From Lysobacteraceae bacterium (GTDB taxonomy: Bacteria > Pseudomonadota > Gammaproteobacteria > Xanthomonadales > BQJN01): a stretch of 44,283 nucleotides of DNA. A program made the position numbers and the translations under genes. Positions within the stretch are counted from its first letter, which is position 1. The number at the start of each line of letters is the position of its first letter. Below are positions 5,168 to 38,145 of the stretch, piece by piece. The notes under the pieces are model-generated. The model searched no databases and had not been told where the DNA came from. It saw only the letters and a program-made list of their open reading frames with translations. The DNA is taken from positions 1 through 44,283 of the forward strand of contig BQJN01000031.1 in the NCBI GenBank assembly GCA_021604725.1, written 5' to 3'.

Positions 5168-5202
5168 AAAGGGTCGGCATTTGCCGACCCTTTTTCGTTT
5201 TT
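5168..5202 (+). terminator. Rho-independent terminator after the protease gene
   Basis: The stem GGGTCGGCA/TGCCGACCC (5171-5190) is preceded by AAA and followed by TTTTTCGTTTTT. Confidence 0.8.
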
Positions 5203-5270
5203 GGCCGAGGCCGGGCGATAAGCTTGCTAAACGTTTAAACTACGGCACCGCTTTGAGCCAAGAGTTGAAG

Positions 5271-7898: not shown

Positions 7899-7937
7899 GC
7901 ATTGTTGGAACGCTCGGTGACTGCGATCATTACAGCA

Positions 7938-11076: not shown

Positions 11077-11916
11077 CTACGGCATGTCGTCCCGTTGCAC
11101 TTTGATCAGTTTTGTTAGCCCTCTAACTTCGCTACGTAGGGCGATCACCTCGTGCAGCAAGGCTTCCCGCTCGTCGTGGGCCGTATGTTCGGCTTCTTCC
11201 ATGGTTTCCTGGTGCACCGATTGCATGGAGTTGACGATCAAGGCGATAAACAGGTTGAGTACGGCAAAACTGGTGATGATGACGAAGGGCACGAAGAACA
11301 GCCAGGCCAGCGGGTACACATCCATGATCGGTCGCACAATGCCCATCGACCAGCTTTCCAGCGTCATGATCTGGAACAGGCTGTACATTGACTCGCCAAT
11401 GCCACCGAACCAATCGGGAAACTGCTCGCCAAATAGCTTGGTTGCCATGACCGCGGATACGTAGAACAGTAGCATCAGTACAGCAATGATCGAGCCCATG
11501 CCTGGCAAGGCATGAAACAAGGCACCGATGACGGTGCGCATCTGCGGCACCACTGACAATAGCCGCAGAGTTCTGAGAACCCGAAGAGCGCGCATCACTG
11601 ACAGCGGACCGGACGCCGGTAGCCAGGAGGCTGCAACAATGACGAAATCGAAAACGTTCCAGCCGCTGGTGAAGAATCGCTGTCTGTAGACCCAGAGTTT
11701 TAGGGCCAGCTCCACGGTAAAGATCCATAGCGCGATATGGTCTATCCACATCAGCAACCCGCCGGCCTGCTGCACCGCTGGCGGCCAGGTTTCCAGCCCG
11801 AGGGTGGCGGCGTTGATCAGGATTACGACGGTAATAAACAGACCGAAGCGGCGAGACTCGACCAGCGATCTTAGCGGCGAGTTCAATTCACTTTCGGCCT
11901 TGGATTGGGTGCTCAT
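11077..11916 (-). CDS. Bacterial voltage-gated sodium channel (BacNav / NaChBac-NavAb family, 6TM)
   Basis: 279 aa with an S4 voltage sensor carrying Arg at every third position (RALRVLRTLRLL), a pore loop with the selectivity filter TLESWSM, and 6 TM segments. Confidence 0.85.
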   Translation of the reverse strand: MSTQSKAESELNSPLRSLVESRRFGLFITVVILINAATLGLETWPPAVQQAGGLLMWIDHIALWIFTVELALKLWVYRQRFFTSGWNVFDFVIVAASWLPASGPLSVMRALRVLRTLRLLSVVPQMRTVIGALFHALPGMGSIIAVLMLLFYVSAVMATKLFGEQFPDWFGGIGESMYSLFQIMTLESWSMGIVRPIMDVYPLAWLFFVPFVIITSFAVLNLFIALIVNSMQSVHQETMEEAEHTAHDEREALLHEVIALRSEVRGLTKLIKVQRDDMP

Positions 11917-19831: not shown

Positions 19832-19938
19832 GCATGCCGAAGTCGACCGATGATGTCTACCTTGAATTTGGTCAATTCAGCGAGGTTCGCCGAAATTTAC
19901 CGCTATTTCGCCGGCATTTGCATCAAATTAAGCGCTGT

Positions 19939-22323: not shown

Positions 22324-22660
22324 CAGTTGTGGGTTCCTGCGACGACAATCTGGTGGGCGATAGTAGCCAAATAGTGCGTAGGCGTCGACTGCCCAAGGGC
22401 GGTAGCCCTCGGTTTCAAGTCGAGCACTGGCCTGTGCTGACTGCTCGGATAGCTCGCGGTGTTGTGCGCTCGGACGCCTCGTTGCGATGAATAATTTCTC
22501 GATAATAAATGTTTGCAAAGGCGCTTTGCCTGAATTGGAGGTGGCCAAATGCAACGCATTTCGTCTGGCCAAAGCAGTGCGCCGTATCACCAGCTGGTGT
22601 ACGATACGCGGTCTTCTGTAGACCGCAAACTGCGCGGTTAGAAACGATGAGGGTAGTCTT

Positions 22661-25219: not shown

Positions 25220-25246
25220 CGCCAATCCATCGATAGAGTTAGAGTT

Positions 25247-25278
25247 AAAGCCCCGGTGTAGCGCCGGGGCTTTTTTTT
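25247..25278 (+). terminator. Rho-independent terminator after the second protease gene
   Basis: GCCCCGG-tgtagcg-CCGGGGC followed by TTTTTTTT. Confidence 0.8.
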
Positions 25279-25308
25279 GAGTTTGGTCCAAAAACGGCGG
25301 GGTAAAAA

Positions 25309-25977
25309 ATGCTTCTTAGACGCAGGCTATCGCTGGTGATTTTGGCGTTTGCAGCCCCAGTCGCTGTGGCCGGTGGGCAGGTTTGCTTCGACCCGCTGTT
25401 GTTTCGAACAGCATTCGAGGTTACGCCAAGCTGCGCTGTGGATGACCAGCCCTTGAGTGAGTTGCAATCGCTGCTTGAGCCGGATGAACCCGTTCAAGGT
25501 TGTATTCCGCCGGGCTCGAACAGTGGCCTTGATTACTGTCAGGGAACGTGTGCAGTGGGCGGCTCGGGTTGTGATGTGGAATTTTCGACCAGCGACGTCG
25601 TTATCAACGTCAGCGATGATCTGGTTTGCTTTGACGCCTTGATTGCGTTGCCAGCGGTCGACATCTCGGCTCTTGGATTTCCCGTATGTAGCATGAGGCT
25701 GGATATTGTTGGTAGCAATATGGCCGCGCTCGATGGTACCTACTCAGCCGCATACACCTGGCAATACGCATCGTCGCTAAGCGACTTTGTGGTGGATGAT
25801 GTGTTGGTCGAAGGCTGTGATGCAATTGCCGATCAGCTGGACGCCATCATCGCCGGGCTTACCCCGGATTTTGAGGCGCAGGGCGCGGCGACGGCCGATG
25901 CCTTGTTGGCAACCATGGCGGGTGTCAACTTCTGCCCCGTTGATTCGCTACACCCTGATTTCATCGGCGGTCCATAG
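25309..25977 (+). CDS. Secreted cysteine-rich hypothetical protein
   Basis: 222 aa with the signal peptide MLLRRRLSLVILAFAAPVAVAGG, 10+ Cys residues and an acidic region. It has no recognisable catalytic motif. Coding-like codon usage and its position between a terminator and convergent genes support it as a real gene. Confidence 0.45.
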   Translation: MLLRRRLSLVILAFAAPVAVAGGQVCFDPLLFRTAFEVTPSCAVDDQPLSELQSLLEPDEPVQGCIPPGSNSGLDYCQGTCAVGGSGCDVEFSTSDVVINVSDDLVCFDALIALPAVDISALGFPVCSMRLDIVGSNMAALDGTYSAAYTWQYASSLSDFVVDDVLVEGCDAIADQLDAIIAGLTPDFEAQGAATADALLATMAGVNFCPVDSLHPDFIGGP

Positions 25978-25981
25978 ATAT

Positions 25982-26584
25982 CTAACGGTTTTTCAGGGCG
26001 CTTGAAACTGAGCGCTTGAGCCACCATCGAAGCAGCCCGGTTAGTACTGCATACAGGCTGACGCCGGCTACGCCGCCGACCAGCCAGAACCAGCCGGCAA
26101 AGGCCTGATCGGCATTGCTTTGCTGTTCAAACGACAAGGTCCAGCCGCCGCCCTGATTTAGCCACAGACCTGCTTGTGGTTCGAATAAGGAATAGACCGC
26201 AATGCAGATCAGCCCAAGGGTGAACAGGTAGCCAAGGCCCAGACAGGCGATCAACAGAGTGTCTAGCAGGCCTCTGCCCATGCGGGCAGAAAAGGCCATC
26301 AAGATAGCTGCCGGATGACCCCTGCCGGCCTTACGGCTCAGTCGCAGCTCCTCGGCAAGCTCCGGGACAAAGTCGATAGGGTCGCCCAAGCGTTGTATTG
26401 CTTGTTGCAAACGTTGTGAGTCTGAGCTTGCGTCGGCATCCATCATCGCGTCATCGATATGGGCCCGAATCTCCTGGCGAACCTCATCACGTTCTCGGCG
26501 CGGCAGCGCAGCCAGCAACTGGTCCACTTTATCAAGGTAAGCGGCCAGGTCCTTCTCGACGTCGTTGTTGCTTGTGGTGTTCAT
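25982..26584 (-). CDS. DUF1700-like membrane protein, partner of the PadR regulator
   Basis: It starts MNTTSNNDVEKDLAAYLDKV (N-terminal helical sensor-like region) and has 2-3 C-terminal TM helices. Its start overlaps the PadR stop (ATGA). The track's 26629 start was trimmed. Confidence 0.6.
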   Translation of the reverse strand: MNTTSNNDVEKDLAAYLDKVDQLLAALPRRERDEVRQEIRAHIDDAMMDADASSDSQRLQQAIQRLGDPIDFVPELAEELRLSRKAGRGHPAAILMAFSARMGRGLLDTLLIACLGLGYLFTLGLICIAVYSLFEPQAGLWLNQGGGWTLSFEQQSNADQAFAGWFWLVGGVAGVSLYAVLTGLLRWWLKRSVSSALKNR

Positions 26585-26949
26585 TGGTCTTTCTCCAGCG
26601 CACGCATGGTTTGCGACCAACGCGTCCATTCGCTTTGCATCATCGATGCCAATTCTCGTCCTCTGTTTGAAATGGTGTAGTACTTGCGCGGATTGCTACT
26701 GCCTTCGGTGTCCCATTCGGTATCGACCAGTCCATCACGCTGCATTCTGCGCAGCAGTGGATACAGCGTTCCTTCGGGCAATTCGGCATCAAGCGATTGG
26801 CGAAGGTTGGTGGCGATCTCATAGCCATAGCTGCGTTTCTGACAAAGCAGCAACAAGATAAACGTCTCCAGCCAGCCTTTTCTGGCCTGGGGCTGCCAGC
26901 GTGCAAAAAGCTGTTCGACAGAATTTTCGTCATTCATGACCATCTGCAT
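26581..26949 (-). CDS. PadR-family transcriptional regulator
   Basis: 122 aa with the winged HTH LLLLCQKRSYGYEIATNL...GTLYPLLRRMQRDGLV typical of PadR. Confidence 0.8.
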   Translation of the reverse strand: MQMVMNDENSVEQLFARWQPQARKGWLETFILLLLCQKRSYGYEIATNLRQSLDAELPEGTLYPLLRRMQRDGLVDTEWDTEGSSNPRKYYTISNRGRELASMMQSEWTRWSQTMRALEKDQ

Positions 26950-27019
26950 AGTATACCTAGGTAATTCTTTGTTATGCTAGGTGCATCGGTAAGCGATGTA
27001 TAGTTTAATGCGAGGTTAT

Positions 27020-28435
27020 ATGATGCGACGTTCAAATTTGGGCTTGTTCTTTGGTTTATGTCTCTCGGTTCCTGTTTTGGCTACGGATATGACCGGGGCC
27101 TGGCAAGGCGACCTGATCATCCCCGAGGGGCCGACGCTGCCCATTGGCATCGAGGTATTCGACCGACCCGATGGCTCGCTTTGGGCCAGTGCCGCCAGTC
27201 CAGCGCAAGGTCAGCGCTACCTGCCAGTAGAGGTGTTTTCAGTCGAGGGAAGGCAGTTCCGTCTGGTGTTGGCCTCACCGCCAGCCACCATTGCCGGAAC
27301 GATGGGTGATAGCGGCCAACAATTGGAAGCAACATTCTCCCAAGGTGGTGGGGAACTGCCTATCAACCTGCAACGAGTCGAAGCCATTGACGATATTGAT
27401 CGTCCACAAACGCCACGCCAGCTGCTCGGGTATAGCGAAAAGGAGGTGTGGATTGAGAACAACAGAGACGGGATATGGCTAGCCGGCTCGCTGTCCATCC
27501 CGGACGATGTGGAGTCAGCGCCGGCTGTGTTGTTGCTGGCTGGATCGGGTGCGGCACAACGCGATGCTTACTACGCAGGCCACCGCCCAATGGCTGTTCT
27601 GGCCGACCGTCTCGCCGGCAAGGGTCTGGTGGTATTGCGCTTCGACAAACGCGGCGTCTACAAGAGCACCGGTCAGCACAACCCGGTAGCCATTGACGAC
27701 ACGCTGGCTGATGCGCAATCGGCATTGGCTTATCTGCGTGCCCAACCAGTGGTCGACGCCAAGAGACTTGCTGTGATTGGTCACAGCGAAGGCGCTTTGA
27801 TCGCCGGTATGTTGGCCTCCTCTAATGATCTGGTATCGGCGGTTTCTTTGGCCGGTCCTGGCATGCCGATTATCGAGCTGTTGCAATTGCAGGATGCCAC
27901 AGAGGCGCTGGCGGCCGGCGCTAGCGAACAGGAGGCTAGTGCGTTGTCCGAGTTGACTGGCCAAATCTATGTAGCAGCAAAGGAAGAGCGCAATATTGAG
28001 GTCAGAATGGCCCGCATCACGACGTTGCTGCAGCAGGCCACAGAACTTCAGCGCAGCGCTTTCGAGCAATACAACGGTGGTACCGGAACGTTGTCTGAAA
28101 ACTGGCTAAGCCGGCCCAAATACTCAGACTTCCTGATGATTGACCCTCAACACAGTTGGGGACAAGTCACCGAGCCGGTTCTCGTTATCAATGGTTTGGC
28201 CGATAGCCAGGTGCCGGCTGAGCAGAACGTCAAGGGCATTGTCGACTCCGTGAAGGGCCCGGTCTCAGTTTGTACGCCGGAGAACGTTAACCATATGTTG
28301 CAGCCAGCAGCCAGTGCAGCGACCGCAGACTACGCTGAAATAACGCAAACCATAGCGGAACCATTGTTGAACAACGTCATCAGTTTTGTCCGGCACAACA
28401 GCGGGCTTTCTGCGCAAGGTACAGCTGATTGCTAG
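27020..28435 (+). CDS. Secreted alpha/beta hydrolase with an N-terminal beta-rich domain
   Basis: The signal peptide is MMRRSNLGLFFGLCLSVPVLA, with GAGG 4 nt upstream. The nucleophile elbow is GHSEGALIAG. The C-terminus has GLADSQV and NH. Confidence 0.6.
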   Translation: MMRRSNLGLFFGLCLSVPVLATDMTGAWQGDLIIPEGPTLPIGIEVFDRPDGSLWASAASPAQGQRYLPVEVFSVEGRQFRLVLASPPATIAGTMGDSGQQLEATFSQGGGELPINLQRVEAIDDIDRPQTPRQLLGYSEKEVWIENNRDGIWLAGSLSIPDDVESAPAVLLLAGSGAAQRDAYYAGHRPMAVLADRLAGKGLVVLRFDKRGVYKSTGQHNPVAIDDTLADAQSALAYLRAQPVVDAKRLAVIGHSEGALIAGMLASSNDLVSAVSLAGPGMPIIELLQLQDATEALAAGASEQEASALSELTGQIYVAAKEERNIEVRMARITTLLQQATELQRSAFEQYNGGTGTLSENWLSRPKYSDFLMIDPQHSWGQVTEPVLVINGLADSQVPAEQNVKGIVDSVKGPVSVCTPENVNHMLQPAASAATADYAEITQTIAEPLLNNVISFVRHNSGLSAQGTADC

Positions 28436-28670
28436 CGCTTCTGTTGCGCAAAATCGCCCAGTGACTCTCTCGTTGGAGCACTCGTAGTGATGCAGGCCGG
28501 GAGTGAAAATGGCTCCGCTTCTAGCGGCAAGCGGCATGATTCCGGAGCTGATTTTAGCTCCCTTTAAAAAAAAATGATCCGATTCTCTTCCGAACTACGC
28601 GCTATTTGATTGACTAGGGAAAAAACCGTCCGTTGTCAGTGCATCGGGCCAATCAATTGAGGATTGCATC

Positions 28671-31600
28671 GTGAGTAGGAAGAATAGGGTTGTTGCTACA
28701 CTGTGGCTGCTTTCGAGTTTCATTTTTGCCGGACCAGTTAACGCTTCTGAAGCGCCGCCTCCGCCAGGTTGGGTCGCGGCCACTATGCGTGACGCTTTTC
28801 GCATGACCTACGACGTTCGTTGGGGCGCTGAAGCAACCGCGGACTACTATCGAATAAGGCGCATCTGTCCCGATCAGACAGCGTCGGATTGTGTTGCCCC
28901 CAACGATGTCGTTGAATTGGATGCGATCTCAACCGTTCTGACTGAACGTAGAAGCCTAGCAACACCGCCTGGTCCCGCTGGAACCTACCAGTACGAGGTA
29001 CAGGCCTGTAGTCGAAAGGCATGCAGCGCAGCAGTTTCGTCGGGAGATTTCTATGTTGACCTGCCCACGCCCGAAGCCGTCGCGGAGGTTTCGCTGACGA
29101 CGGTCGACGCGACCACCGGCGAGTATCGCCTGAATTGGGGTGATCGGTCAGAATTGTGGGTCGATGAGTATAGAGTCAAGCGGACCTGTCCCGCCGCAGC
29201 AAGCGGATGCACTACAGAGTTCGCTATCCCTGCCGGAACTTTTGCCGCTGACCAGCAACTGGTGGTAGGTGGCACATACACGTTTGAGGTTACCGCTTGC
29301 AATAGCGATGACGAGTGCAGCGCGTACGTATCGACCGGGCCGGTCACAGTAGCCGACCCAGACGTTGCGCCCAGCCCTCCGGAGGATTTTCTCGGCTCCT
29401 GGATTTCCGTTTCCCCATTGCAATATCAGCTGTCCTGGGACGCACCGAAAGACGGGCCTGCCGTCGACTTCTATCGGCTGCTGGATGGCGACACCGGGAC
29501 AAAACTGGTCGACACGACAGCCCTGAACTTCTTGATCACCGTCAGCAAACCAGAGGACTACGGTGATAAGACCTACGAGCTGTATGCGATGTCTGACAGC
29601 GGACAAAGCAGCGACGCGGTCGAGCTGGACTGGACGGTTCCGACCAATACAATCAACTCTCCGCCGCCGGCAACACCGATCAGCGAATTCAACGCGTTGG
29701 TGAACCAGCACAAGGCGGAAAGTAGCAACGTAGGCGCAACGGCCGGCCAGTTTCGTGTCGATGAACAAGGCAACGCGACCTATGCCATTGATTTCATGAC
29801 GGCACCTTCAGCGGGGGGCGTGGCCCCGTCGATTGGGCTCAGTTACAGCAGTGCTGGTGCCAATGGTGACGTCGGCGTCGGATGGGCGATCACAGGGTTG
29901 TCATCCATCACGCGTTGTGCCCAAACATATGAACAGGATGGAGCGGGAGCAGTTGCTGGTATCCAGGTCGACTACTCAGATCGGTTCTGCCTTGATGGCG
30001 AGCGTTTGTTGCTGGCGTCTGGCAGCAGTTACGGGGCTCACAATGCACAGTACCGATTGGAGTCGGACCCATTCACCAAGATTCAGTCGAAGGGCGCGGT
30101 CGGCAACGGTCCAAACTGGTTCAAGGTATGGCGCAAGGACGGTTCGGTTAGCGAGTATGGTCGGCAAGCCAGCTCAAAGATTCGCATCGAGGCCGGTAGT
30201 GCTCAAGTTACCGTGCTGACGTGGGCCGTGAACCAGATCAAGGACAGTGTCGGCAACAAAATGGACTTTGAGTATTGCTCCAGCAACGACTCGGCCAGCA
30301 ACGCGAATTGTCCGGATCAACTCGATGAAGACAATCAAGTCGAATTCCATATTTCCTCGATTTTGTATGGCAGCACCAGTCAAAAAAACCGATTGTCATT
30401 CATTTGGAGCAACAATCGGGCCGACGCTGCGGTGGCCTACGTTGGTGGTGGCCGATTGACCAGCAGCTACTTGCTGCAAAGGGTCGACAGTTTTGGCCGC
30501 GGTTACCCGGACACCAGCGAAAAGTTGCTACGCAGCTATCACCTCGGCTACGACCCGCTCGGGGATGGCTACGGCCATCCGGTATTGCAGGAAGTCAGGG
30601 AGTGCTCGAATCTTGGCGGCACTCAGTGTTTCCCACCGTTGACCTTTGAGTGGAACAAATCCAGCAATGCGCTGTTCTCAGGGAAGGCCGATATTCCGAT
30701 TGGCGGAAGCAGCAGTTCAGATCTAAACCTGTTTCCCGACAACTACATTTCTGGACAACCGGCTGACCTGGATGGCGATGGTCGGCAGGAGTTGGTGTAT
30801 TTGCACAATGCCGACCACCCTAAGCTCGGCTATGTGAAGATTGGTGGTGCCCTGGGTTCACAGACGGTCCAGCCGCGCCGCCAGGCCGTTGACAATGTGT
30901 CAAATGAGCTGCTCGACAATGCGTCCGGCTGGAACGTGCTCGATTACAACCTCGATGGTCGTGATGACATTGTCTACGTGCACAAGTCAGGCAATTCTCG
31001 CTACTGGCGCGCCTATGCCGGTCAACAGTCTGCCCCCTACATTAGCTCAACTCCGGTCAACATCGGCTATATCGGCAACTGGGGCGATAGCAGCGTTGGA
31101 GTGGGCGCGGTTTCGGTCCAGGACATCAATGGAGACGGGCGACCTGATCTGCTGTATGCCGTTCGCGGCGAGTTAACAATGAGTTTGAACCAGGCTGGAC
31201 TCGGACAGCCAGTGGGTTCGTCGTTTGCTGATGCCGAACCGATTGATTTTAGAGACGCCGATGGTTTTGCAATCTACTTTAGGGGTATGGTCGGGGACGA
31301 GCTAGCAATCCCAAACGCCACTATTAGTCCCACGAGGGTGTTCGACCTCGACAATGATGGCGACTCTGATTTGCTAGTCAAAGTGACGGCTAACGTTAAT
31401 GCTGCCAATCCCCAAGGGATGGGTGATGATCAGCTGCTCGCCATATTGACGTCAGCTCAGCAAGCGCACAACGCTCTGCCGCAAAACCGGAATTCGAACG
31501 AAGCCTACTACTCGGGTTGGTTTATCGCCGAAGCTACCCGGGGAGATGCGAGTGCAGCAAACAGTCAGGGTTTGTCATATGAACTTGTCAGACAGCCGGT

Positions 31601-34600
31601 AGCGATTGGTGAAGACTGCCAGGAAGCGACCGAGCCGCAGACCTATATATGTACGGATACCGTCAACCAGGTCGGCAACATTGAAGCTGTCGACATGAAT
31701 GCCGATGGCCTCGCCGACCTGGTGATCAAGTCAGTGGCCTTCCAGAATCACCAGTTAGGTATCTGGACCAATACGGGCGAAGGTTTCCCCATTAACCCGC
31801 AAAGTGACCCGTACGTCCATTTTACCAATATCCACAAGGCGAGATACTCCCACCTCGTCGACTTCGATGGCGATGGCCGAGTAGACATCCTGCATACCGA
31901 TGGTTCGGATAATGAACAAACCAAGTGGCAGGTTCGGCGTAATACGGCCGCCGGGTTCGGTCATACGTCTGAGTTAACGTTTGCGCATGCGAGAAACGTC
32001 GACGGCTCAACGGCAATTCCCGCGAACAAAGACACGTCGATCTTTTTTGACGCCAATGGCGATGGCCGCCTGGATCAGTTCCTGATCAACCGAGACAACG
32101 ACGGTGTCGTCAATGGCCAGACCCACTTCCGACGCGGTTACAACGAGATCAACGGCGACACCGTTGGACCGAACAATGTCATCAATCGATTCGTTGGTTC
32201 CTACGGCGACTACACCGAGATCGACTATCGGCCGTTGACTGACACAGTGGTCTACAAACGCGATTGTGTGACCACTGGCACCAACTGTGGTTCCAACGGC
32301 GCCACCTGGGGCGCAGGTTCGGCGGTTTTCGACCTGATCTCACCGATGTATGTGGTGTCGGCAGCTGTTAGTAGCGCGCCTGCTGCCTCGGTGACACACA
32401 ATGGTGGCAGCAGCTTTACCGTGCAAAGCACCAATGCATCAGCGCAGAGCATGGTGTTGTACGAGTATCGCGGCGCGAAGCTGCAAGGCGGTGGCCGTGG
32501 CTTTCTCGGGTTTAGGGAAATTGTCAGCACCGATGGTCAGCTCGGCGTCGAAACCACCACCCAATACCGTCAAGACTTCCCATTTATCGGTCGCCCAATC
32601 GAGACCGAGAAGCGACTGTTGGATGGCACACTGATCGCCCGCTCGACGGGTACCTGGGCTTCGCAAACCATTTCGGGTAGCGGTGGTGCAAGTTTTGTAT
32701 ATCAGGACACGACCGATGACTGGAGCTACGACACCTCAGGCAATTTGCTCAGTCGCGTGTTCAGCGACTCCGACTACAACGATGGCTGGGGCAACGCCAC
32801 AAATATCGTTGTCCAAACCTTTGACGGGAGTGGCAACGACCTGGTGGAACAAAAGACTACCGTCAACACCTATACAAACTCCTCATCGAAGTGGCACCTT
32901 GGCCGATTGACCAATGCGACCGTGACCACCACGTTGGACGACGGCACATCGGCGACGCGCCAAACCAGTTTTGGATATGACAGTGTCAGTGGGCTGCTAA
33001 AAACAGAAACCGTAGAGCCGGGTCACGCTAAATCAGTGACAAAGACCTATGTCTTGGATGGATTTGGTAACCGCACATCTACCACAGTCAGCAGCGAAGG
33101 CGTCAGCCGGGTCATTAGCCAGACTTACGACCCCAGCGGTCGGTATCTCTTGTCGAAGACCAATGCGCTGGGACAAATCGAGTCGGAGGTTACCGAATAC
33201 GACCATTGGGGCAACCCGCTCGAAAGTGAGGACATGCGCGATGTCGTAACCACGCATGCCGTCGATTTGATGGGACGCCCCATGGGTTCATACAGCCCAA
33301 CCGGCGCGTATCAGGTCCAGTACTACGATACGCAGGCATGCCCTTTTGCCAACGCGCCGGTCGCCTTTCGTATGGTGTCTGTTGCTGGTGGAGGAACTGT
33401 CGGTACCGTCTGTTATGACATTCTTGGGCGAGAGATTCTCAAATCCAGTCAGGCCTTGGGTGACAACAACACTATCGCCACGGTCATCGTTGAAACCGAG
33501 TACGACAGTCAGGGCAGGACGATTCGGGTATCTGAACCGGCCTTTACCGGTGATCCACAATATTGGACCAACTCGGCCCTGAATGAACTGGGCCATGCCG
33601 ATGCGATTCAGCATCCCAATGGCAGCTACACGCAGATTCAATACCTGCCCGGCAACATCATCCGCACCATAGACCCATTGGGTCACGTACGTGACGAGAC
33701 CAGGAACGGTCTTGGGCAAACCCTTGAGGTGGAAGAAACCAATGACGCGGTCAGTCCGGCGCAAACAGCAACAATCATATTCGACGAGACCATCCAGGCG
33801 TCACAACGGGTTAAGTCTGTCACCGGAGCGGACGGACATCAGGTGCGCACGACGCTGGATATCTTCGGCAACAAGATTGAGGTGGATGATCCAGACAAAG
33901 GCGTTTGGCAGTACAGCTACAACGGTTTCGGTGAGCTGACGTGCCACATTGACGCCAATGGCGACGGTTCTCGCTACGAGTACGATGCCTTGGGGAGAAT
34001 GATCGAGCGCATTGACTCGCGTTCAATACCAAGTCTGCAAAATTGTCAGGGCACTGACGCGCGCAACCAGCGCTGGACGTATGGCAACACCCATGGAGTG
34101 CCAGGGTATGGATTGCTGATCATTGAGCAGGTTTGCAATGACCCGAACTGGATTGCACAGGGGTTGTCGGGATGTGCCATTCCAGGTGGGAATGGGCAGG
34201 CCTTTGAGGGCTTCAAGGTATCTCACAATTTTGACAGTCTCGGACGGATCACTGAGACGTACACAGAAATCACCAATGAGGACGGGTACAAGTGGTTTGC
34301 TCAGACCACGGCATTCGATCAGTACGGTCGTCTGTTTCAGAGCTTCGATGCCGCAGGCGATCTTAGTGGCGTCGAATACGAGTACAACTCGGTGGGCACG
34401 CTGGTCAAGATCAAGGATGCCGTGGAAGGCGGCATTCACGAAGAAGTCAGGGAAATGGATGCGCGCGGCAATCAAACGCTGGTGCGTTATGACAACAATA
34501 CGTTCAGCGTTGCCCGCATCTTCGAACCGGATACGGGCTTGCTTGAAAGCTCAATCTCCAGTCAAGGTGACCACTGGTTGGAGTTCGACTTTGACGATGT

Positions 34601-36572
34601 TGGCAATCTCGAGCAGCGGCGCATCTATAGCGGCGGCAGCAACATTGTCGAGGACTTTGAATACGACGATTTTAACCGCTTGACCAAGGCCACACTGAAC
34701 GGCCCAACCGGTGTTCGGGTCAATAACACCGAGTACGATGTCGCCGGCAATATTACCTATCGTGACTACGCCGGAAACCAGACGCTAGGTAGCTATCAGT
34801 ATGGCCAGGTGACCTGTGGAATCCAGGCCGGCCCGCATGCGGCAACTTCCGTCGGCGGCGTTAGTTATTGTTACGACGAAAACGGAAACCGAACCAGTAG
34901 CAGCGCTGGAGAGTTGATTACCTACTCCGCGTTCGACAAACCGACACTGGTCGAAAAAGGCTCCAGTCGCCTGGAGTACAGCTACGGCGCCAACCGCGAA
35001 CGGTTGATCAAGCGCTCGGTAACACCCGGCAAGGATGCAACGACCTACTACATCGGCAGCGTTGAGGTGGTGATTGACAAGGACGGTGACCGTGAGTACC
35101 GACGCTATGTCGGCTCATCAACGCTACTGATCAGCCGCAATGGCAATCAGGCGGGAGTTGAGCGAAACGTGCTGGTCAAAGACCATTTGGGTTCGCTTGA
35201 TGTCATCATCGACGATGGCGGATTCCTCAAGGAGCAGACCAGTTTTGATGCCTGGGGCCTGCGGCGTGATGTCAGCGATCCGCTAGTATCACCGCTCCAA
35301 GGCGTTCTCGACGCGCTACACGCGGTAACAGATCGCGGGTTTGGTGGCCATGAGTCGCTGGATGAGTTTGGCTTTGTCGATATGGGTGGGCGCATGTACG
35401 ACGCGGTGATTGGCCGCTTCCTGCAAGCCGACCCGTTCATTCAGTCGCCGAAGAATGCGCAAAACCTGAACCGTTACAGCTACGTGCTCAACAATCCGCT
35501 GAGCTTGACCGATCCGACCGGCTATTTCTTTGAGGAACTGAAGGAAAACTGGCGCACTGTTGCTGCCATCGTTATCTCTGTGTTCTTGCCATATGCCGCT
35601 CCAGCAGTGTTTGGATCCGGTTTGGCAGGAGCGGTGGCTACTGGTTTTGTCGCTGGCAGTGTAGGCAGTGGCAGCCTCAAGGGAGGGCTGATCGGTGCAT
35701 TTAGTGCCGGTGTGTTTCATGGCATCGGTACCGCCTTCGCGGGTGCCGAGGGCCAGGGCGGGACGTTCTTCGGGACCAAGCTAAGTGGCGGCGCATTTGC
35801 CGGCAAAGTAGCGGCCCACGGCGTTGCCGGTGGTGTGATGAGTGAACTGCAGGGCGGAAAGTTCGGTCATGGCTTTGTCTCCGCCGGTTTGACCCAAGCA
35901 TTCAGTGGTAAAATCGATACCATCGGCGGCGGCTCAATCGAAGCGATGCCAGCCCGGGTGATGGCCGCTGCTGTGGTCGGCGGAACGGCCTCTGCTGTGA
36001 CCGGAGGCAAGTTTGCCAACGGCGCGATCACCGGGGCGTTTTCTAGGGCGTTTAATGATGAAGCGCACTGGTGGCAAAAGTTCAAACAGGGTGCCTCGCA
36101 GATTTCGCACGACTTGGTTAACGATCGAGATAAGTTGTGGGGGTTTGCAGAACAGGAGACTTGGAACGTGACCGTACGAACCGCTGCAGTAGTGGGTGGC
36201 GCTGGGCAAGTTGGTTTCGGTGTTGTAGCCTGTTCGACGGGTGTAGGTTGTGCACTTGGGGGCGTGGTTGCCGCACACGGAGTCAACAACATCTACGAGG
36301 GGTTTTCGGGGCAGAGCGGCTACTTGCGACAAGGGTATCAGGCAGTGCTGGGTGATACCGCCGGCTCGTATGCATACGCAGCAATAGATATTGGGACGAG
36401 TGCGTACGGCATAGGTAGGGGAGTTTTAAGAACGGGTCTGGATCGTCCGGCCAAGCTATGGTACTACTCCAGTACTGACTTTGTTCCTGCTTTTAGGCAA
36501 ATGACGTCGATTCAGATTGGTAGAGAAGTAGCGATCTCATCTGTCACTGCGATTGATGCGTACAGACAATGA
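28671..36572 (+). CDS. Giant (2633 aa) Sec-signal-bearing TcB/TcC-like (SpvB - FG-GAP beta-propeller - RHS/YD shell - Rhs core) polymorphic toxin with a glycine-zipper-rich C-terminal toxin module
   Basis: GTG start with GAGGA 8 nt upstream. The signal peptide is MSRKNRVVATLWLLSSFIFAGPVNA. Three ~90-aa Cys-loop repeats follow. The SpvB-like domain reads SIGLSYSSAGANGDVGVGWAITGLSSITRC...YRLESDPFTKI...WFKVWRKDGSVSEYG. At least 7 FG-GAP/VCBS motifs (D.DGDGR.D) are present, then a long YD-repeat region, then an Rhs core ending GRMYDAVIGRFLQADPFIQSP...NRYSYVLNNPLSLTDPTGYFF. The C-terminal ~345 aa is Gly-rich. Confidence 0.85.
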   Translation: MSRKNRVVATLWLLSSFIFAGPVNASEAPPPPGWVAATMRDAFRMTYDVRWGAEATADYYRIRRICPDQTASDCVAPNDVVELDAISTVLTERRSLATPPGPAGTYQYEVQACSRKACSAAVSSGDFYVDLPTPEAVAEVSLTTVDATTGEYRLNWGDRSELWVDEYRVKRTCPAAASGCTTEFAIPAGTFAADQQLVVGGTYTFEVTACNSDDECSAYVSTGPVTVADPDVAPSPPEDFLGSWISVSPLQYQLSWDAPKDGPAVDFYRLLDGDTGTKLVDTTALNFLITVSKPEDYGDKTYELYAMSDSGQSSDAVELDWTVPTNTINSPPPATPISEFNALVNQHKAESSNVGATAGQFRVDEQGNATYAIDFMTAPSAGGVAPSIGLSYSSAGANGDVGVGWAITGLSSITRCAQTYEQDGAGAVAGIQVDYSDRFCLDGERLLLASGSSYGAHNAQYRLESDPFTKIQSKGAVGNGPNWFKVWRKDGSVSEYGRQASSKIRIEAGSAQVTVLTWAVNQIKDSVGNKMDFEYCSSNDSASNANCPDQLDEDNQVEFHISSILYGSTSQKNRLSFIWSNNRADAAVAYVGGGRLTSSYLLQRVDSFGRGYPDTSEKLLRSYHLGYDPLGDGYGHPVLQEVRECSNLGGTQCFPPLTFEWNKSSNALFSGKADIPIGGSSSSDLNLFPDNYISGQPADLDGDGRQELVYLHNADHPKLGYVKIGGALGSQTVQPRRQAVDNVSNELLDNASGWNVLDYNLDGRDDIVYVHKSGNSRYWRAYAGQQSAPYISSTPVNIGYIGNWGDSSVGVGAVSVQDINGDGRPDLLYAVRGELTMSLNQAGLGQPVGSSFADAEPIDFRDADGFAIYFRGMVGDELAIPNATISPTRVFDLDNDGDSDLLVKVTANVNAANPQGMGDDQLLAILTSAQQAHNALPQNRNSNEAYYSGWFIAEATRGDASAANSQGLSYELVRQPVAIGEDCQEATEPQTYICTDTVNQVGNIEAVDMNADGLADLVIKSVAFQNHQLGIWTNTGEGFPINPQSDPYVHFTNIHKARYSHLVDFDGDGRVDILHTDGSDNEQTKWQVRRNTAAGFGHTSELTFAHARNVDGSTAIPANKDTSIFFDANGDGRLDQFLINRDNDGVVNGQTHFRRGYNEINGDTVGPNNVINRFVGSYGDYTEIDYRPLTDTVVYKRDCVTTGTNCGSNGATWGAGSAVFDLISPMYVVSAAVSSAPAASVTHNGGSSFTVQSTNASAQSMVLYEYRGAKLQGGGRGFLGFREIVSTDGQLGVETTTQYRQDFPFIGRPIETEKRLLDGTLIARSTGTWASQTISGSGGASFVYQDTTDDWSYDTSGNLLSRVFSDSDYNDGWGNATNIVVQTFDGSGNDLVEQKTTVNTYTNSSSKWHLGRLTNATVTTTLDDGTSATRQTSFGYDSVSGLLKTETVEPGHAKSVTKTYVLDGFGNRTSTTVSSEGVSRVISQTYDPSGRYLLSKTNALGQIESEVTEYDHWGNPLESEDMRDVVTTHAVDLMGRPMGSYSPTGAYQVQYYDTQACPFANAPVAFRMVSVAGGGTVGTVCYDILGREILKSSQALGDNNTIATVIVETEYDSQGRTIRVSEPAFTGDPQYWTNSALNELGHADAIQHPNGSYTQIQYLPGNIIRTIDPLGHVRDETRNGLGQTLEVEETNDAVSPAQTATIIFDETIQASQRVKSVTGADGHQVRTTLDIFGNKIEVDDPDKGVWQYSYNGFGELTCHIDANGDGSRYEYDALGRMIERIDSRSIPSLQNCQGTDARNQRWTYGNTHGVPGYGLLIIEQVCNDPNWIAQGLSGCAIPGGNGQAFEGFKVSHNFDSLGRITETYTEITNEDGYKWFAQTTAFDQYGRLFQSFDAAGDLSGVEYEYNSVGTLVKIKDAVEGGIHEEVREMDARGNQTLVRYDNNTFSVARIFEPDTGLLESSISSQGDHWLEFDFDDVGNLEQRRIYSGGSNIVEDFEYDDFNRLTKATLNGPTGVRVNNTEYDVAGNITYRDYAGNQTLGSYQYGQVTCGIQAGPHAATSVGGVSYCYDENGNRTSSSAGELITYSAFDKPTLVEKGSSRLEYSYGANRERLIKRSVTPGKDATTYYIGSVEVVIDKDGDREYRRYVGSSTLLISRNGNQAGVERNVLVKDHLGSLDVIIDDGGFLKEQTSFDAWGLRRDVSDPLVSPLQGVLDALHAVTDRGFGGHESLDEFGFVDMGGRMYDAVIGRFLQADPFIQSPKNAQNLNRYSYVLNNPLSLTDPTGYFFEELKENWRTVAAIVISVFLPYAAPAVFGSGLAGAVATGFVAGSVGSGSLKGGLIGAFSAGVFHGIGTAFAGAEGQGGTFFGTKLSGGAFAGKVAAHGVAGGVMSELQGGKFGHGFVSAGLTQAFSGKIDTIGGGSIEAMPARVMAAAVVGGTASAVTGGKFANGAITGAFSRAFNDEAHWWQKFKQGASQISHDLVNDRDKLWGFAEQETWNVTVRTAAVVGGAGQVGFGVVACSTGVGCALGGVVAAHGVNNIYEGFSGQSGYLRQGYQAVLGDTAGSYAYAAIDIGTSAYGIGRGVLRTGLDRPAKLWYYSSTDFVPAFRQMTSIQIGREVAISSVTAIDAYRQ
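28800..29640 (+). other. Domain: three tandem ~90-aa Cys-loop beta-sandwich (FN3-like) repeats at the N-terminus of the giant protein
   Basis: Repeat cores are Y.V.WGAEATADYYRIRRICPDQTASDC, YRLNWGDRSELWVDEYRVKRTCPAAASGC and YQLSWDAPKDGPAVDFYRLL. Each ends with a Y.Y/F.V.AC-like strand. Confidence 0.5.
29717..30270 (+). other. Domain: SpvB-like (TcB N-terminal) domain
   Basis: ESSNVGATAGQFRVDEQGNATYAIDF...PSIGLSYSSAGANGDVGVGWAITGLSSITRC...DRFCLDGERLL...YRLESDPFTKIQSKG...WFKVWRKDGSVSEYG matches the SpvB/TcB N-terminal consensus pattern. Confidence 0.7.
30760..32100 (+). other. Domain: FG-GAP/VCBS-repeat beta-propeller
   Basis: Repeated D.DGDG..D motifs: DLDGDGRQELVY, DYNLDGRDDIVY, DINGDGRPDLLY, DLDNDGDSDLLV, DMNADGLADLVI, DFDGDGRVDILH and DANGDGRLDQFL. 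Confidence 0.7.
32450..35531 (+). other. Domain: RHS/YD-repeat shell plus RHS-repeat-associated core with DPxG autoproteolysis motif (DPTGYFF at ~35511-35531)
   Basis: Many YD-type repeats (YDSQGR, YSYNGFGEL, YEYDALGRMIER, YEYNSVGTL, YDNNTFSV, FEYDDFNRLT, YDVAGNITY, YCYDENGNRTS...). The core has the conserved R.YD...GRFLQADP....N.Y.Y..NNPL...DP.G signature. Confidence 0.8.
35532..36569 (+). other. Domain: C-terminal polymorphic toxin (CT) module: a ~180-aa glycine-zipper region followed by a ~170-aa terminal domain of unknown activity
   Basis: Immediately after DPTGYFF there are repeated GxxxG/AxxxG strings (GSGLAGAVATGFVAGSVGSGSLKGGLIGAFSAGVFHGIGTAFAGAEGQGG...). The terminal domain has a second hydrophobic Gly-rich stretch, AAVVGGAGQVGFGVVACSTGVGCALGGVVAAHGV. 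No nuclease, deaminase or ADP-ribosyltransferase motif was recognised. Hand-counted GC falls to ~42-50% over 36420-36600, against ~55-60% elsewhere. Confidence 0.6.
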
Positions 36573-36847
36573 TGCAAGCGTATTCACTTTTGTTGTTCTA
36601 TGCGTTGGCCGCGGTTGCCATCCTTTGCCTTGATAGAAAGGATGCCTCGCTTGGGGGACGGTACTGGTTGCAGGTTCTTGCATTTTGCCTTTCCTTGATC
36701 GTAGCCATACTTCCGTTAGTTGCGTTGAAAGTGAGTTGGATCGCTTCTGGCGCGCCATCGCTAGTTTTGGCAGGTCTTGCTTTCTTTTATTTTTCTGGTC
36801 TAAAACGGCATCGCTTGTTTTCGGCAGGGCGTGATGAGCGAAGGTAG
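36569..36847 (+). CDS. Candidate cognate immunity protein (92 aa, three predicted TM helices)
   Basis: Its ATG overlaps the TGA of the giant gene (cAATGATG). The protein MMQAYSLLLFYALAAVAILCL...WLQVLAFCLSLIVAILPLVAL...LVLAGLAFFYFSGL has 3 hydrophobic helices. GC is low (~45%, hand count). It is followed by a bidirectional terminator. This is the classic Rhs-CT/immunity arrangement. Confidence 0.5.
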   Translation: MMQAYSLLLFYALAAVAILCLDRKDASLGGRYWLQVLAFCLSLIVAILPLVALKVSWIASGAPSLVLAGLAFFYFSGLKRHRLFSAGRDERR

Positions 36848-36956
36848 GTAAGACTGGCAACCAAATTCCGTGTTACGGTAAGTTAGCTCAGGGAACAGTT
36901 GTGATCCAAACTGACGTTCCTGATGTGAGATTTCAAAAAACATCACTACGAAGGGC

Positions 36957-36994
36957 GCAAAAAAAACGCGGTGCGAACCATCGCACCGCGTTTT
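36957..36994. terminator. Bidirectional rho-independent terminator between the convergent immunity-candidate and SPFH genes
   Basis: An A-run, then CGCGGTGCGA-acca-TCGCACCGCG (10-bp perfect stem), then TTTT. The T/A tracts on both sides overlap the TGA of the minus-strand SPFH gene. Confidence 0.8.
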
Positions 36995-38145
36995 CAATCC
37001 GGTCGAACGTTAATTCTTACCGTGTCCTGGAGGACGCTGTCGAGGCCACCGAAGACCGTCATGCGGTCAACTTTTTCGGTGACTTTTTCCAACGTTTCCA
37101 GTTCTTTTAGACGCATCAGCGTCGGGTTTTCATCCATCAATTTGGCAGTGTTCAAAAGAGAACGTGTCGCTGCGGTTTCTTCTCGTCGCTTGATCACGTT
37201 GGCCTGTGCGGCCTTCTCTGCAGACACGACCTGGTTGAGGATGTCCTTCATGTCACCCGGCAGGATGATGTCTTTGACGCCGGCGTGCTTCAAGGTCACT
37301 CCGTAGTCAGCGGCGGACGTTGCCGTCGCTTCGAACAGTGTGGTCTCAAGCGCGCCCTTGTCAGACAGCAACGCATCCAGGGTTCGCGTTCCAACCGCCG
37401 CCCGCAACGCAAATTGCAGCTGGCGGTACAGCGCGTCGACGTAGTCTTTGACTACCGTTCGGGCCATCACCGGGTCGGCGACCTGGTACAGCGCGGAAAC
37501 GTTGATACGCAAACTGACTTTGTCTTTGGTCAGGATTTCCTGGCCTGAGACTTCCATCGCTTGCAGACGCAGTTCGACGTGCTCAACCTTGATGTTGCGG
37601 TTGAAACGCCAGAAGGCATAGGCACCGGGTTTTAGCTGGCGAGCCAGCTCACCGTTGACGTACAGCAAACCAACGCTGTCACCGCTCACTTCAGTGGCCA
37701 GCACAAACTGCCGCGCGGCGGTAGCCAACGCCGGCAGTCGGGCTTGCGCCAGAAGTGAGGCCACAGGTTCAGTGATCTGCGGGTCGTCTTCGATGTTTAC
37801 CCGTTCGACTCGAATGTCGCTGGCATCCTTCCAGTACAACACCTCGGAGCCGGGCGGAATGACACCGCTCAGGCGTCCCTTGGTGTATTCGAGACCGACT
37901 TCAAAGTCGCCGACTTCAACCACTTCAAAGCTCGCTTCAATCAGTTCGGCGTTGTCACGTCGAAACGCGTCCAGCGCCGGGTGAGTAAAGCGAGGGTTGC
38001 TGATATCGACCACTTGCAATGAGCGGCCAGAGAACGGGGTGAACATCCAGTAAACCCCTGGGCCCAAGATGTCGTTCAACTGCCGATTACGCATATCCAG
38101 TGCGCGTTCGGTCTGGCCAACGACGAAACGTTTAATTCCAAACAT
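36994..38145 (-). CDS. SPFH/band-7 (prohibitin/stomatin-like) domain protein
   Basis: 383 aa starting MFGIKRFVVGQTERALDMRNRQLNDILGPGVYWMFTPFSGRSLQVVDI, the hallmark SPFH N-terminus, with a C-terminal coiled-coil-like region. GGAGGA sits 5 nt upstream of the ATG. Confidence 0.7.
   Translation of the reverse strand: MFGIKRFVVGQTERALDMRNRQLNDILGPGVYWMFTPFSGRSLQVVDISNPRFTHPALDAFRRDNAELIEASFEVVEVGDFEVGLEYTKGRLSGVIPPGSEVLYWKDASDIRVERVNIEDDPQITEPVASLLAQARLPALATAARQFVLATEVSGDSVGLLYVNGELARQLKPGAYAFWRFNRNIKVEHVELRLQAMEVSGQEILTKDKVSLRINVSALYQVADPVMARTVVKDYVDALYRQLQFALRAAVGTRTLDALLSDKGALETTLFEATATSAADYGVTLKHAGVKDIILPGDMKDILNQVVSAEKAAQANVIKRREETAATRSLLNTAKLMDENPTLMRLKELETLEKVTEKVDRMTVFGGLDSVLQDTVRINVRPD

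Follow-up and report, generated by a model that had tools for sequence, protein, structure and literature searches.

A gene of a Lysobacteraceae bacterium appears to encode a Sec-exported shell toxin that would need no partner of the kind used by insecticidal toxin complexes. We analysed the contig BQJN01000031.1 of a metagenome-assembled genome (MAG) of this diderm organism (GCA_021604725.1), a stretch of 44,283 nt that is called here the window. The open reading frame (ORF) at 28671-36572 (+) runs in a single frame and encodes 2633 aa. In our interpretation, to which we assign a probability of roughly 0.7, this gene and the small ORF that follows it constitute a stand-alone, two-gene polymorphic toxin/immunity module, exported by Sec and aimed at other Gram-negative bacteria. 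The protein, as described below, would combine a signal peptide, a shell resembling the joined B and C components (TcB and TcC) of the Tc toxins, a self-cleaving core and a C-terminal toxin domain of the DUF4225 family, and both the toxin domain and the gene behind it were found to be exchanged as a cassette between closely related strains.

The start of the gene deserves attention, as the signal peptide depends on it. The GTG codon is the first start after the in-frame stop, and the protein of a sister strain (P0001) begins identically. The N-terminus, MSRKNRVVATLWLLSSFIFAGPVNA followed by SEAPP, contains three basic residues, a hydrophobic core of 15 residues and V-N-A at positions -3 to -1; its n-, h- and c-regions are recognisable by direct reading, and it is a textbook Sec signal of the signal peptidase I (SPI) type, whose cleavage is presumed. 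Among the homologues, 85 of 120 showed a signal-peptide-like N-terminus by a crude hydrophobicity rule, and several had lipoboxes. It should be noted that all signal-peptide calls in this work come from such a rule of thumb and not from SignalP. The earlier note on this DNA had considered that the signal peptide could be an artefact of start-codon choice. We rejected this explanation, with the next in-frame Met located at residue 39, because a GAGGA site precedes the GTG, the gene call of the sister strain is identical, and signal-peptide-like N-termini are frequent in the family. In addition, the 28 cysteines of the protein all lie in close pairs (14 pairs), with C416 and C440 conserved at more than 90% across the family alignment; such a pairing would fit an oxidising, extracytoplasmic life.

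The fold of the shell was predicted with AlphaFold in two overlapping halves, residues 340-1539 (model 1) and 1400-2470 (model 2), from an alignment of 30 sequences. Model 1 (predicted local distance difference test score, pLDDT, 73.9; predicted TM-score, pTM, 0.79) matched TcB along its whole length. In Foldseek searches it aligned with TcdB1 (6l7i_F) at E 4.7e-39 and a query-normalised TM-score (TMq) of 0.62, and with YenB and TcdB2 at TMq 0.55-0.63, whereas the values against Rhs proteins belonging to type VI secretion systems (T6SS) were 0.13-0.14 and those against teneurins and a bacterial teneurin-like protein (TLP, 9ifo) were 0.08-0.11 (9ifo 0.11). Model 2 (pLDDT 79.1, with 80-92 in the RHS shell; pTM 0.71) found its best superposition on TcdB2-TccC3 (TMq 0.63-0.65, root-mean-square deviation 5.4-5.8 Å) and also aligned with TccC2 (target-normalised TM-score 0.70). 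The models thus support a single-chain, TcB+TcC-like cocoon fold, with TMq 0.60-0.65 to TcdB1, YenB and TcdB2-TccC3 over the two halves, the closure of the cocoon lying outside what two half-models cover. The fused TcB/TcC-like chain proposed in the earlier note is corroborated by these superpositions, and of the closed BC cocoon that was to be sought by structure prediction, the Tc-BC fold of both halves stands and the closure is unproven. The label teneurin-like fits less well and was rejected, because the similarity of the N-terminal half to teneurins and TLPs is far below that to TcB.

Pfam identified in this shell an SpvB domain followed by an integrin-like beta-propeller, together with a weak TcdB_toxin_midN match. 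The SpvB part resembles TcB; it matched YenB in a sequence search of the PDB (E 5e-7), and its block-mean pLDDT was mostly 80-95. The propeller contains the calcium motif Dx[DN]x[DN]GxxD seven times (residues 699, 758, 818, 892, 1008, 1064 and 1127), and these motifs fit a seven-bladed propeller; its pLDDT was moderate, and its position equals that of the TcB propeller in the Foldseek alignments. In front of the shell there are three FN3-like modules, which are probably adhesion or display modules. The first two contain two close Cys pairs apiece, the region gave a weak match to ChitinaseA_N (E 1.2e-4), and in homologues other modules (Ig, FN3, Calx-beta, TIG or LRR, according to Pfam) take the place of this set.

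Behind the shell, the Rhs-associated core (Rhs_assc_core, NCBIfam TIGR03696) was recognised at residues 2218-2284 (E 3.8e-17), with DPTGYFF at residue 2281, and the residues D2244, D2254, N2274, N2275, P2276, D2281, P2282 and G2284 were invariant in 27 sequences. By the precedent of TccC3 and of Rhs proteins, the chain may cleave itself at DPTG and encapsulate its cargo. Pfam, NCBIfam and the reading of the sequence thus agree with the earlier description of one 2633-aa ORF with signal peptide, SpvB, a 7-blade-like FG-GAP propeller, RHS shell and intact DPxG. The DUF4225 toxin, the pretoxin domain, the FN3-like modules and the 92-aa ORF downstream were absent from that description.

The pretoxin domain (177 residues, 22% Gly and 18% Ala) has about nine predicted helices and a DUF637 match below the Pfam gathering score (residues 2291-2405, E 1.2e-4), and its conservation across the family reaches the motif "GGKFxNGA...FN(D/x)E". 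When the window protein was used in tblastn, the matches ended at about residues 2285-2294, right after DPxG, in about 14 of 80 loci, and in about 46 of 80 they reached about 2443-2505, where the pretoxin domain ends; therefore, the family has members with and without this domain.

The cargo itself matched DUF4225 at residues 2493-2611 (E 3e-9, 36.8 bits against a Pfam gathering cut-off of 25.9), and at E 2e-10 when the C-terminal region was searched in isolation. An exhaustive search with this C-terminal toxin region (CT) gave 125 relatives, with the DUF4225 domain C-terminal in all of them. They span from about 75 aa (probably fragments) to more than 3500 aa, including short, stand-alone or orphan-sized proteins, and among the six that were domain-scanned P0134 and P0142 are SpvB-FG-GAP-RHS proteins, P0134 with a signal-peptide-like N-terminus. 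The word-indexed homologue search with the CT yielded a single match only, and the PDB sequence search with the pretoxin and toxin region yielded none even at E 10. A DUF4225 protein of Vibrio parahaemolyticus was shown to be an antibacterial T6SS1 effector, which is toxic only when directed to the periplasm, causes lysis, and is neutralised by Imm4225, an 89-aa protein with three transmembrane (TM) segments encoded directly downstream (Jana et al. 2022, mSystems, PMC9765294). By analogy with this homologue, the cargo of the window toxin would be antibacterial and periplasm-acting.

The 92-aa ORF that overlaps the end of the toxin gene is likely its immunity gene. It fits the description of Imm4225 in size, TM count and position, and the likeness is limited to that description. 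The ORF showed no similarity (E 22) to a 96-aa ORF located downstream of a DUF4225 module in Glaciecola, so that the homology of the two immunity candidates is unproven, and it had no significant Pfam match, the best sub-threshold one being DUF7670 (E 0.014). The same position was also informative in other loci of the family: by a crude hydrophobicity test, the ORF immediately downstream of the toxin gene had multi-TM or signal-peptide/anchor-like segments in 38 of 63 loci, against 188 of 542 among the other ORFs of 80-300 aa in these loci (Fisher odds ratio 2.9, p 1e-4). This enrichment fits a tendency of the carrier to deliver envelope-acting toxins. Concerning the end of the putative operon, a scan for promoter and terminator consensus sites found them no commoner than in shuffled sequences, and it missed the obvious hairpin at 36959-36994. 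The features of the locus are collected in Table 1.

Table 1. Positions in the window of the features assigned to the toxin locus; residue numbers are those of the 2633-aa protein.
Feature	Position	Strand	Basis
GAGGA ribosome-binding site and GTG start	28659..28673	+	direct sequence reading; GAGGA about 8 nt before GTG
Predicted Sec (SPI-type) signal peptide, residues 1-25, predicted cleavage between VNA and SE	28671..28745	+	rule-of-thumb reading
Three tandem FN3-like modules, about 100 aa each (residues 30-325)	28758..29645	+	self-alignment
SpvB/TcB N-terminal shell part, residues 354-690	29730..30740	+	Pfam SpvB 366-576, E 5e-16
FG-GAP beta-propeller, residues ~691-1150, seven calcium motifs	30741..32120	+	FG-GAP_3 in four stretches, E 1e-14
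Mosaic tract: propeller blades 4-5 and long insert, residues 831-1060	31161..31850	+	recombination import, compared with sister strain
RHS/YD-repeat shell (TcB C-terminal part and TcC-like part)	32121..35321	+	RHS_repeat and YD_repeat_2x matches
Rhs-associated core with predicted aspartyl autoprotease motif D2254 ... D2281-P-T-G	35322..35522	+	TIGR03696
Helical pretoxin domain rich in Gly and Ala (residues 2286-2464), with GGKFANGAITGAFSRAFNDE at its end	35526..36062	+	composition, model, conservation
DUF4225 toxin domain, residues 2465-2633, and stop codon	36063..36572	+	Pfam
Exchangeable toxin/immunity cassette, unrelated DNA in sister strain (L001 16179-17188)	36064..36959	+	blastn
Candidate immunity gene, 92 aa, about three TM helices	36569..36847	+	ATG overlaps toxin stop codon (ATGA)
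Hairpin with A-run and T-run, putative bidirectional terminator	36959..36994	.	sequence reading; between toxin operon and convergent SPFH gene

The comparison with the sister strain gave further evidence of a polymorphic toxin. Its locus (L001, from Logan run DRR227405), which encodes P0001, is syntenic with the window and shares the gene order met-zincin, HAAS/PadR, hydrolase, toxin, SPFH, HNH, and the two toxins are about 99% identical outside two places. One of these is the C-terminus. By blastn, the DNA identity is 96.8% from 19928 to 36063 (the codon after AFNDE), and homology resumes at 36960, where the hairpin marks the right-hand boundary of the cassette. In its place the sister strain carries an unrelated CT of 147 residues without Pfam match, followed by an ORF (L001 16627-17079) that is probably of 150 aa, not of 84 aa as called; its ATG overlaps the toxin stop (TAATG), and it starts with a lipoprotein-like signal peptide (MMRSLLSVGLLFLLVCGITSCG). 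The pretoxin segment (residues 2281-2464) differs between the strains with a synonymous divergence (dS) of 0.87 and a ratio of nonsynonymous to synonymous divergence (dN/dS) of 0.03; therefore, it arrived with the cassette and yet is strongly constrained. These alignments show that cassettes of toxin and putative immunity gene are exchanged by recombination at the conserved "GGKFANGA...AFNDE" junction.

Orphan modules with the same junction were also found. In a Glaciecola MAG (L062 5030-6528), a module begins inside the Rhs core (MNGRIYDP...DPSGFFF) and contains the same pretoxin domain, an identical GGKFANGAITGAFSRGFNDEAH junction and a DUF4225 CT 50% identical to that of the window; it is followed by the stop-overlapping, multi-TM ORF of 96 aa mentioned above, and it adjoins an AAA+ ATPase and an 834-aa ORF. 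P0148 is a further orphan module with this junction, and small RHS-related ORFs behind the main gene of other loci, such as L003 and L083, probably belong to this group too. Furthermore, the regions after the junction in 153 family members fell into 101 clusters, 88 of them singletons.

The second place is in the propeller, at residues 831-1060, where the proportion of synonymous differences (pS) is 0.70-0.89 against a background dS of 0.04-0.08, and where amino-acid identity falls to 15-70% in many 20-residue windows, against about 99% elsewhere; the long insert within this region is of low confidence in the model. Positive selection by point mutation was considered for this patch and rejected, since synonymous sites are saturated (pS 0.7-0.9). 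This saturation instead indicates an imported recombination tract, and thus the toxin carrier is mosaic at a second site besides the CT. The exchange of propeller alleles suggests that the propeller offers an exposed recognition surface. Regarding the type of toxin, an insecticidal (Tc) one is not supported in view of the DUF4225 cargo, the immunity-like gene and the swapping of cassettes between strains, which point to an antibacterial one.

Relatives of this protein are abundant. A word-indexed search returned more than 100 proteins with the architecture of the window toxin, the best match being 95% identical, and among GTDB species representatives relatives are encoded on at least 579 of the 600 stretches listed. 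The hosts among the matches listed include Lysobacterales, Cellvibrionaceae, Microbulbifer, Pseudoalteromonas, Shewanella, Bacteroidota, Verrucomicrobiota, Myxococcales and others.

In the window, the toxin gene is flanked by an alpha/beta hydrolase gene (26996-28435) and an SPFH gene (36994-38145, minus strand), as the earlier note stated. The scan of 20 larger neighbouring ORFs of the 44-kb window revealed mostly secreted hydrolases and housekeeping genes, and none for TcA, VgrG, PAAR, Hcp, T6SS or type VII secretion (T7SS) proteins; in particular, no TcA, PAAR, VgrG or T6SS gene shares an operon with the toxin in the window. To extend this survey, the window and 86 related loci (87 loci in total, 1166 non-overlapping ORFs) were pooled and clustered all against all. 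Neither in the 44-kb contig nor in the 86 related loci was a TcA, T6SS or two-partner secretion (TPS) gene found, and among the 87 loci no T6SS gene family recurs. The ORFs of at least 2000 aa in these loci all have RHS repeats themselves, and apart from L060 12932-20548, a TIG/BACON/RHS protein, they fall into the clusters of the toxin family. Of the 31 other ORFs of at least 900 aa, the seven closest to the toxin gene were scanned and none was TcA-like; they are TIG/BACON, DUF11, SdrD_B, SLH, TonB-receptor or primase proteins. Likewise, no partner gene appeared in five contexts for which Pfam annotation had been precomputed. The absence of such partners near the gene, noted from the window alone, is thus extended to the related loci.

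The same clustering revealed no conserved neighbour family in the 87 loci. The commonest non-RHS family occurs in seven loci only (L003, L035, L053, L066, L067, L079 and L084), just downstream of the RHS gene; its ORFs, of about 80-400 aa (median about 313), have an HYHLV-type motif and, by our reading of the sequence rather than by a database match, look like Y1/RAYT-type transposases, and they may have to do with the mobility of the cassettes. Downstream of the main gene in L056, L083, L057, L048, L003 and L034 we also observed small RHS-related ORFs in arrays (about 170-850 aa each; three of about 262 aa in L083), and these are probably orphan CT cassettes.

Some other observations on the window can be added. 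The contig is dense in apparently secreted hydrolases (2715-5111, 5181-7898, 7902-9902, 9921-11039, 19939-22590 and 22661-25219), among which there are a trypsin-like protease with three PPC domains, an M1 aminopeptidase, a PLD protein, an S51 peptidase, a DUF4953 met-zincin and an InhA-like MAM protein; the ORFs 2715-5111 and 22661-25219 cluster as paralogues. This density would fit a lytic or predatory lifestyle. At 11077-11916 (minus strand), a 279-aa protein with a single Ion_trans domain (E 9e-45, with a PKD_channel match too) is a homologue of NaChBac-like voltage-gated cation channels. At 25982-26949 (minus strand), upstream of the genes for hydrolase and toxin and opposite to them in orientation, a PadR-like regulator (PF03551, assigned by synteny with L001) is paired with a HAAS-domain membrane protein. 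Finally, the next-best AccC to that of the contig is 82% identical, and the lineage is therefore without a close sequenced relative in the collection.

The architecture of the window toxin is not new. A class named TcdB/TcaC was defined in a purely computational way by Zhang, de Souza, Anantharaman, Iyer & Aravind (2012, Biol Direct 7:18), with signal peptide, SpvB, integrin-like beta-propeller, RHS repeats, a variable C-terminal toxin, an adjacent immunity gene and a wide phyletic spread, all of which are shared by the window toxin and its relatives. The DUF4225 family, in turn, was listed by Jana et al. (2022) with fusions to PAAR, VgrG, Hcp, type V secretion system (T5SS) domains, SpvB, RHS_repeat and Sec signal peptides (PMC9765294). 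Accordingly, the Sec-dependent route that the earlier note put forward as a distinct idea had already been contained in Zhang et al. 2012, and fusions of DUF4225 with Sec, SpvB and RHS elements in PMC9765294. The window protein passes every tested feature of the TcdB/TcaC class and of the DUF4225 toxin family. It differs from what was assumed for that class, namely TcdB/TcaC-dependent export, in that no such export partner appears in the 87 loci. In the literature we found no description of a DUF4225 cargo or of an FNDE-ending pretoxin domain for the TcdB/TcaC class, no paper on the combination of SpvB, FG-GAP, RHS and signal peptide, and no experimental study of the class or of the secretion of SpvB-propeller-RHS proteins in diderms. 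The statement that delivery is unexplained was thus borne out.

On the other hand, the protein does not fit the functional definition of a Tc complex, nor the definitions of CdiA, TLPs and the Rhs effectors of T6SS. Features in common with the BC cocoon of the Tc toxins (TcdB2-TccC3, YenB-YenC; PDB 4o9x, 6h6e, 4igl) are the SpvB shell, a propeller set into the B part, the shell of RHS repeats and the core with the aspartyl autoprotease motif. The window toxin differs in that it consists of one chain, begins with a Sec signal peptide followed by three FN3-like modules, has seven calcium motifs in its propeller, is without a linked TcA, and has a putatively antibacterial cargo and a candidate immunity gene swapped as a cassette. 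The criteria of a Tc complex that it fails are the linkage to TcA (in the contig and the 86 loci), the absence of a signal peptide and the absence of an immunity gene. With the Vibrio DUF4225/Imm4225 pair it shares the toxin family, its extreme C-terminal position and a small ORF with about three TM segments directly downstream, and the carriers differ, a Hcp-linked cargo effector there and a Sec-exported, Tc-like cocoon here. The bacterial TLPs are shell toxins that are directed to Sec by SPI or SPII signals and have immunity genes, and how they are delivered "remains to be elucidated" (Raoelijaona et al. 2026, Nat Commun, PMC13018210; PDB 9ifo), the same gap that we meet here. They resemble the window toxin as shell-encapsulated polymorphic toxins with variable N-terminal adhesion modules, an immunity gene and no known delivery machinery; however, they are built of an FN-plug, an NHL propeller and a YD shell, instead of SpvB and an FG-GAP propeller (TMq 0.11, against about 0.6 for TcB).

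The resemblance to CdiA concerns the pretoxin domain. In both cases a conserved pretoxin (here with the weak, sub-threshold DUF637 match) ends in a short motif, FNDE in our protein and VENN in CdiA, which sets the border at which the variable toxin recombines, and CT/immunity modules also occur as orphans. Unlike CdiA, the window toxin has no TPS domain, FHA repeats or CdiB, according to Pfam scans of the toxin and its neighbours, and its carrier is a cocoon and not a filament. WapA of the Gram-positive Bacillus subtilis is another polymorphic toxin of the Rhs type that depends on Sec, not on T6SS, and has an immunity gene. It is anchored to the cell wall of a monoderm and lacks SpvB and the propeller TcB half, whereas the window toxin must cross two outer membranes. 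A 2025 preprint reports a Xanthomonas Rhs protein longer than 2000 aa that has SpvB and TcdB domains, for which T6SS-independent secretion was suggested, and states that secretion of Rhs toxins through a type II secretion system (T2SS) lacks functional confirmation.

From these data, the following mechanism can be proposed. The 2633-aa precursor would be exported by Sec, with removal of its 25-residue signal peptide, a step that we infer from the sequence and from the frequency of signal-peptide-like N-termini in the family. In the periplasm it would fold into a Tc-BC-like cocoon made of the SpvB shell, the calcium-binding propeller and the RHS shell, with the 14 close Cys pairs probably forming disulfides. 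The aspartyl protease of the Rhs core may then cut between DPTG and YFF, by analogy with TccC3 and Rhs proteins, and free the pretoxin plus DUF4225 polypeptide inside the shell. In the weakest step of the proposal, the particle would exit the producer without TcA or T6SS, most likely by T2SS, outer-membrane vesicles or lysis, and would meet its target via the N-terminal FN3-like modules and/or the propeller. Once the cargo is released, the pretoxin domain could, speculatively, aid the crossing of the target outer membrane, and DUF4225, by the activity known from the Vibrio homologue, would act in the target periplasm and lyse the cell. The 92-aa protein, presumably in the inner membrane, would shield the producer, whose own periplasm the toxin traverses. 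We infer the functional steps of this scheme, above all the two crossings of an outer membrane, rather than observe them.

Several points weigh against this interpretation. Secretion, autoproteolysis, toxicity and immunity of the window protein are all assigned by homology; the signal peptide was judged by a rule of thumb instead of SignalP, and the 92-aa ORF has no detectable homologue, by the comparison with the Glaciecola ORF and by Pfam. The two half-models prove neither a closed cocoon nor a cargo inside it, the propeller of model 1 is of only moderate confidence, and the pretoxin helices have a pLDDT of 50-75. In Tc toxins the propeller gate is opened by TcA, and the window toxin has no linked TcA. 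Nuclease cargoes are also listed for the TcdB/TcaC class by Zhang et al. (2012), and therefore delivery would not be limited to the periplasm in all members. In addition, only a 44-kb fragment of a MAG is visible, and a TcA, T6SS or T2SS may be encoded elsewhere in the genome.

This last point bears on two other explanations. The protein could be a genuine BC subunit of a Tc toxin, with a TcA injector for its docking encoded in another part of the genome and with eukaryotic cells (for example of insects or protists) as targets. Both of its halves superpose best on TcdB/YenB and TcdB2-TccC3, it has the SpvB and TcdB_toxin_midN matches, and natural BC fusion genes exist, which were mentioned but set aside by Song et al. 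2021 (PMC7861908). We nevertheless consider it very unlikely: the window toxin has a Sec signal peptide, of a kind common in the family; no TcA-like ORF appeared among those that reach 2000 aa in the 87 loci or among the seven nearest large neighbours scanned; and the cargo is of an antibacterial, periplasmic type with an immunity-type gene, whereas no immunity proteins of Tc loci have been identified according to Song et al. The seven calcium motifs and the three FN3-like modules may also speak against it. The other explanation is an orphan Rhs effector of a T6SS, loaded onto a spike of VgrG or PAAR whose gene lies elsewhere in the genome; T6SS is indeed the route of most Gram-negative Rhs toxins that have been characterised. 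DUF4225 itself was first validated as a T6SS effector and is fused to PAAR, VgrG and Hcp (PMC9765294). However, PAAR, prePAAR, VgrG and adaptor domains are absent from the toxin and the scanned neighbours (Pfam, NCBIfam), and the N-terminus carries a Sec signal peptide. Characterised T6SS Rhs effectors, by contrast, have PAAR or VgrG-binding N-terminal domains, and none is known to be a Sec substrate. With the low TMq of the N-terminal half against T6SS Rhs structures and the lack of a recurrent T6SS gene family in the 87 loci, this origin is highly improbable. Even less credible, to the point of being nearly dismissible, is a protein whose main role is adhesion or cell-cell recognition, as in teneurins, with a C-terminal domain that is not a weapon. 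The FN3-like modules and the integrin-like propeller would suit such a role, and metazoan teneurins are repurposed shell toxins (PMC13018210). Against it stand an intact, invariant autoprotease motif, a toxin domain with a score above threshold, the swapping of the cassette between near-identical strains and the very high CT diversity of the family, all of them signatures of active conflict.

Other options concern not the identity of the weapon but its route. Instead of ever leaving the cell as a free or surface protein, the cocoon could be a periplasmic cargo of outer-membrane vesicles or be freed by lysis, with vesicles fusing with the prey outer membrane, so that the cocoon arrives directly in the prey periplasm, and DUF4225 acting there. 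Sec export by itself reaches the periplasm only, and no dedicated outer-membrane exporter lies nearby in any of the 87 loci. Moreover, the toxin would act in the periplasm, as its Vibrio homologue does, the immunity candidates of both strain cassettes are envelope-located by prediction, and downstream ORFs are enriched in TM or signal-peptide features. The contig is rich in secreted proteases, and this would fit a lytic or predatory lifestyle of Lysobacteraceae. This route fails, however, to explain the variable N-terminal modules of adhesion type and the recombining surface of the propeller, which point to exposure and to the recognition of receptors. It also sits poorly with the fact that some members of the family are lipoproteins. 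On balance we regard it as unlikely. A further idea, which we put forward tentatively and hold to be doubtful, is that of a self-contained, TcA-independent delivery device, in which the calcium-binding propeller would be a polymorphic, receptor-binding gate and the pretoxin domain, set free with the toxin by the aspartyl protease, a translocator that takes the cargo over the target outer membrane into the periplasm and so replaces the TcA channel. The propeller of Tc toxins is a conserved gate for the docking of TcA. In the window toxin, blades 4-5 recombine between near-identical strains, in a manner that can be likened to the exchangeable receptor-binding domain of CdiA.

Returning to the Sec-exported toxin/immunity module, the window toxin is in itself an unremarkable representative of its class, which is large, widely distributed and catalogued since 2012. 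The locus is a clean example of a delivery problem, in which a shell toxin of about 280 kDa, exported by Sec, would have to leave one diderm cell and enter another without TcA, T6SS or T5SS. It also offers testable handles: a cargo of known compartment (the periplasm), a defined cassette junction (AFNDE) and a natural pair of alleles differing only in two propeller blades and the toxin cassette. Delivery in this class could become testable with the help of the FNDE-ending pretoxin domain, the propeller blades that recombine and the bias of the immunity candidates towards the envelope.

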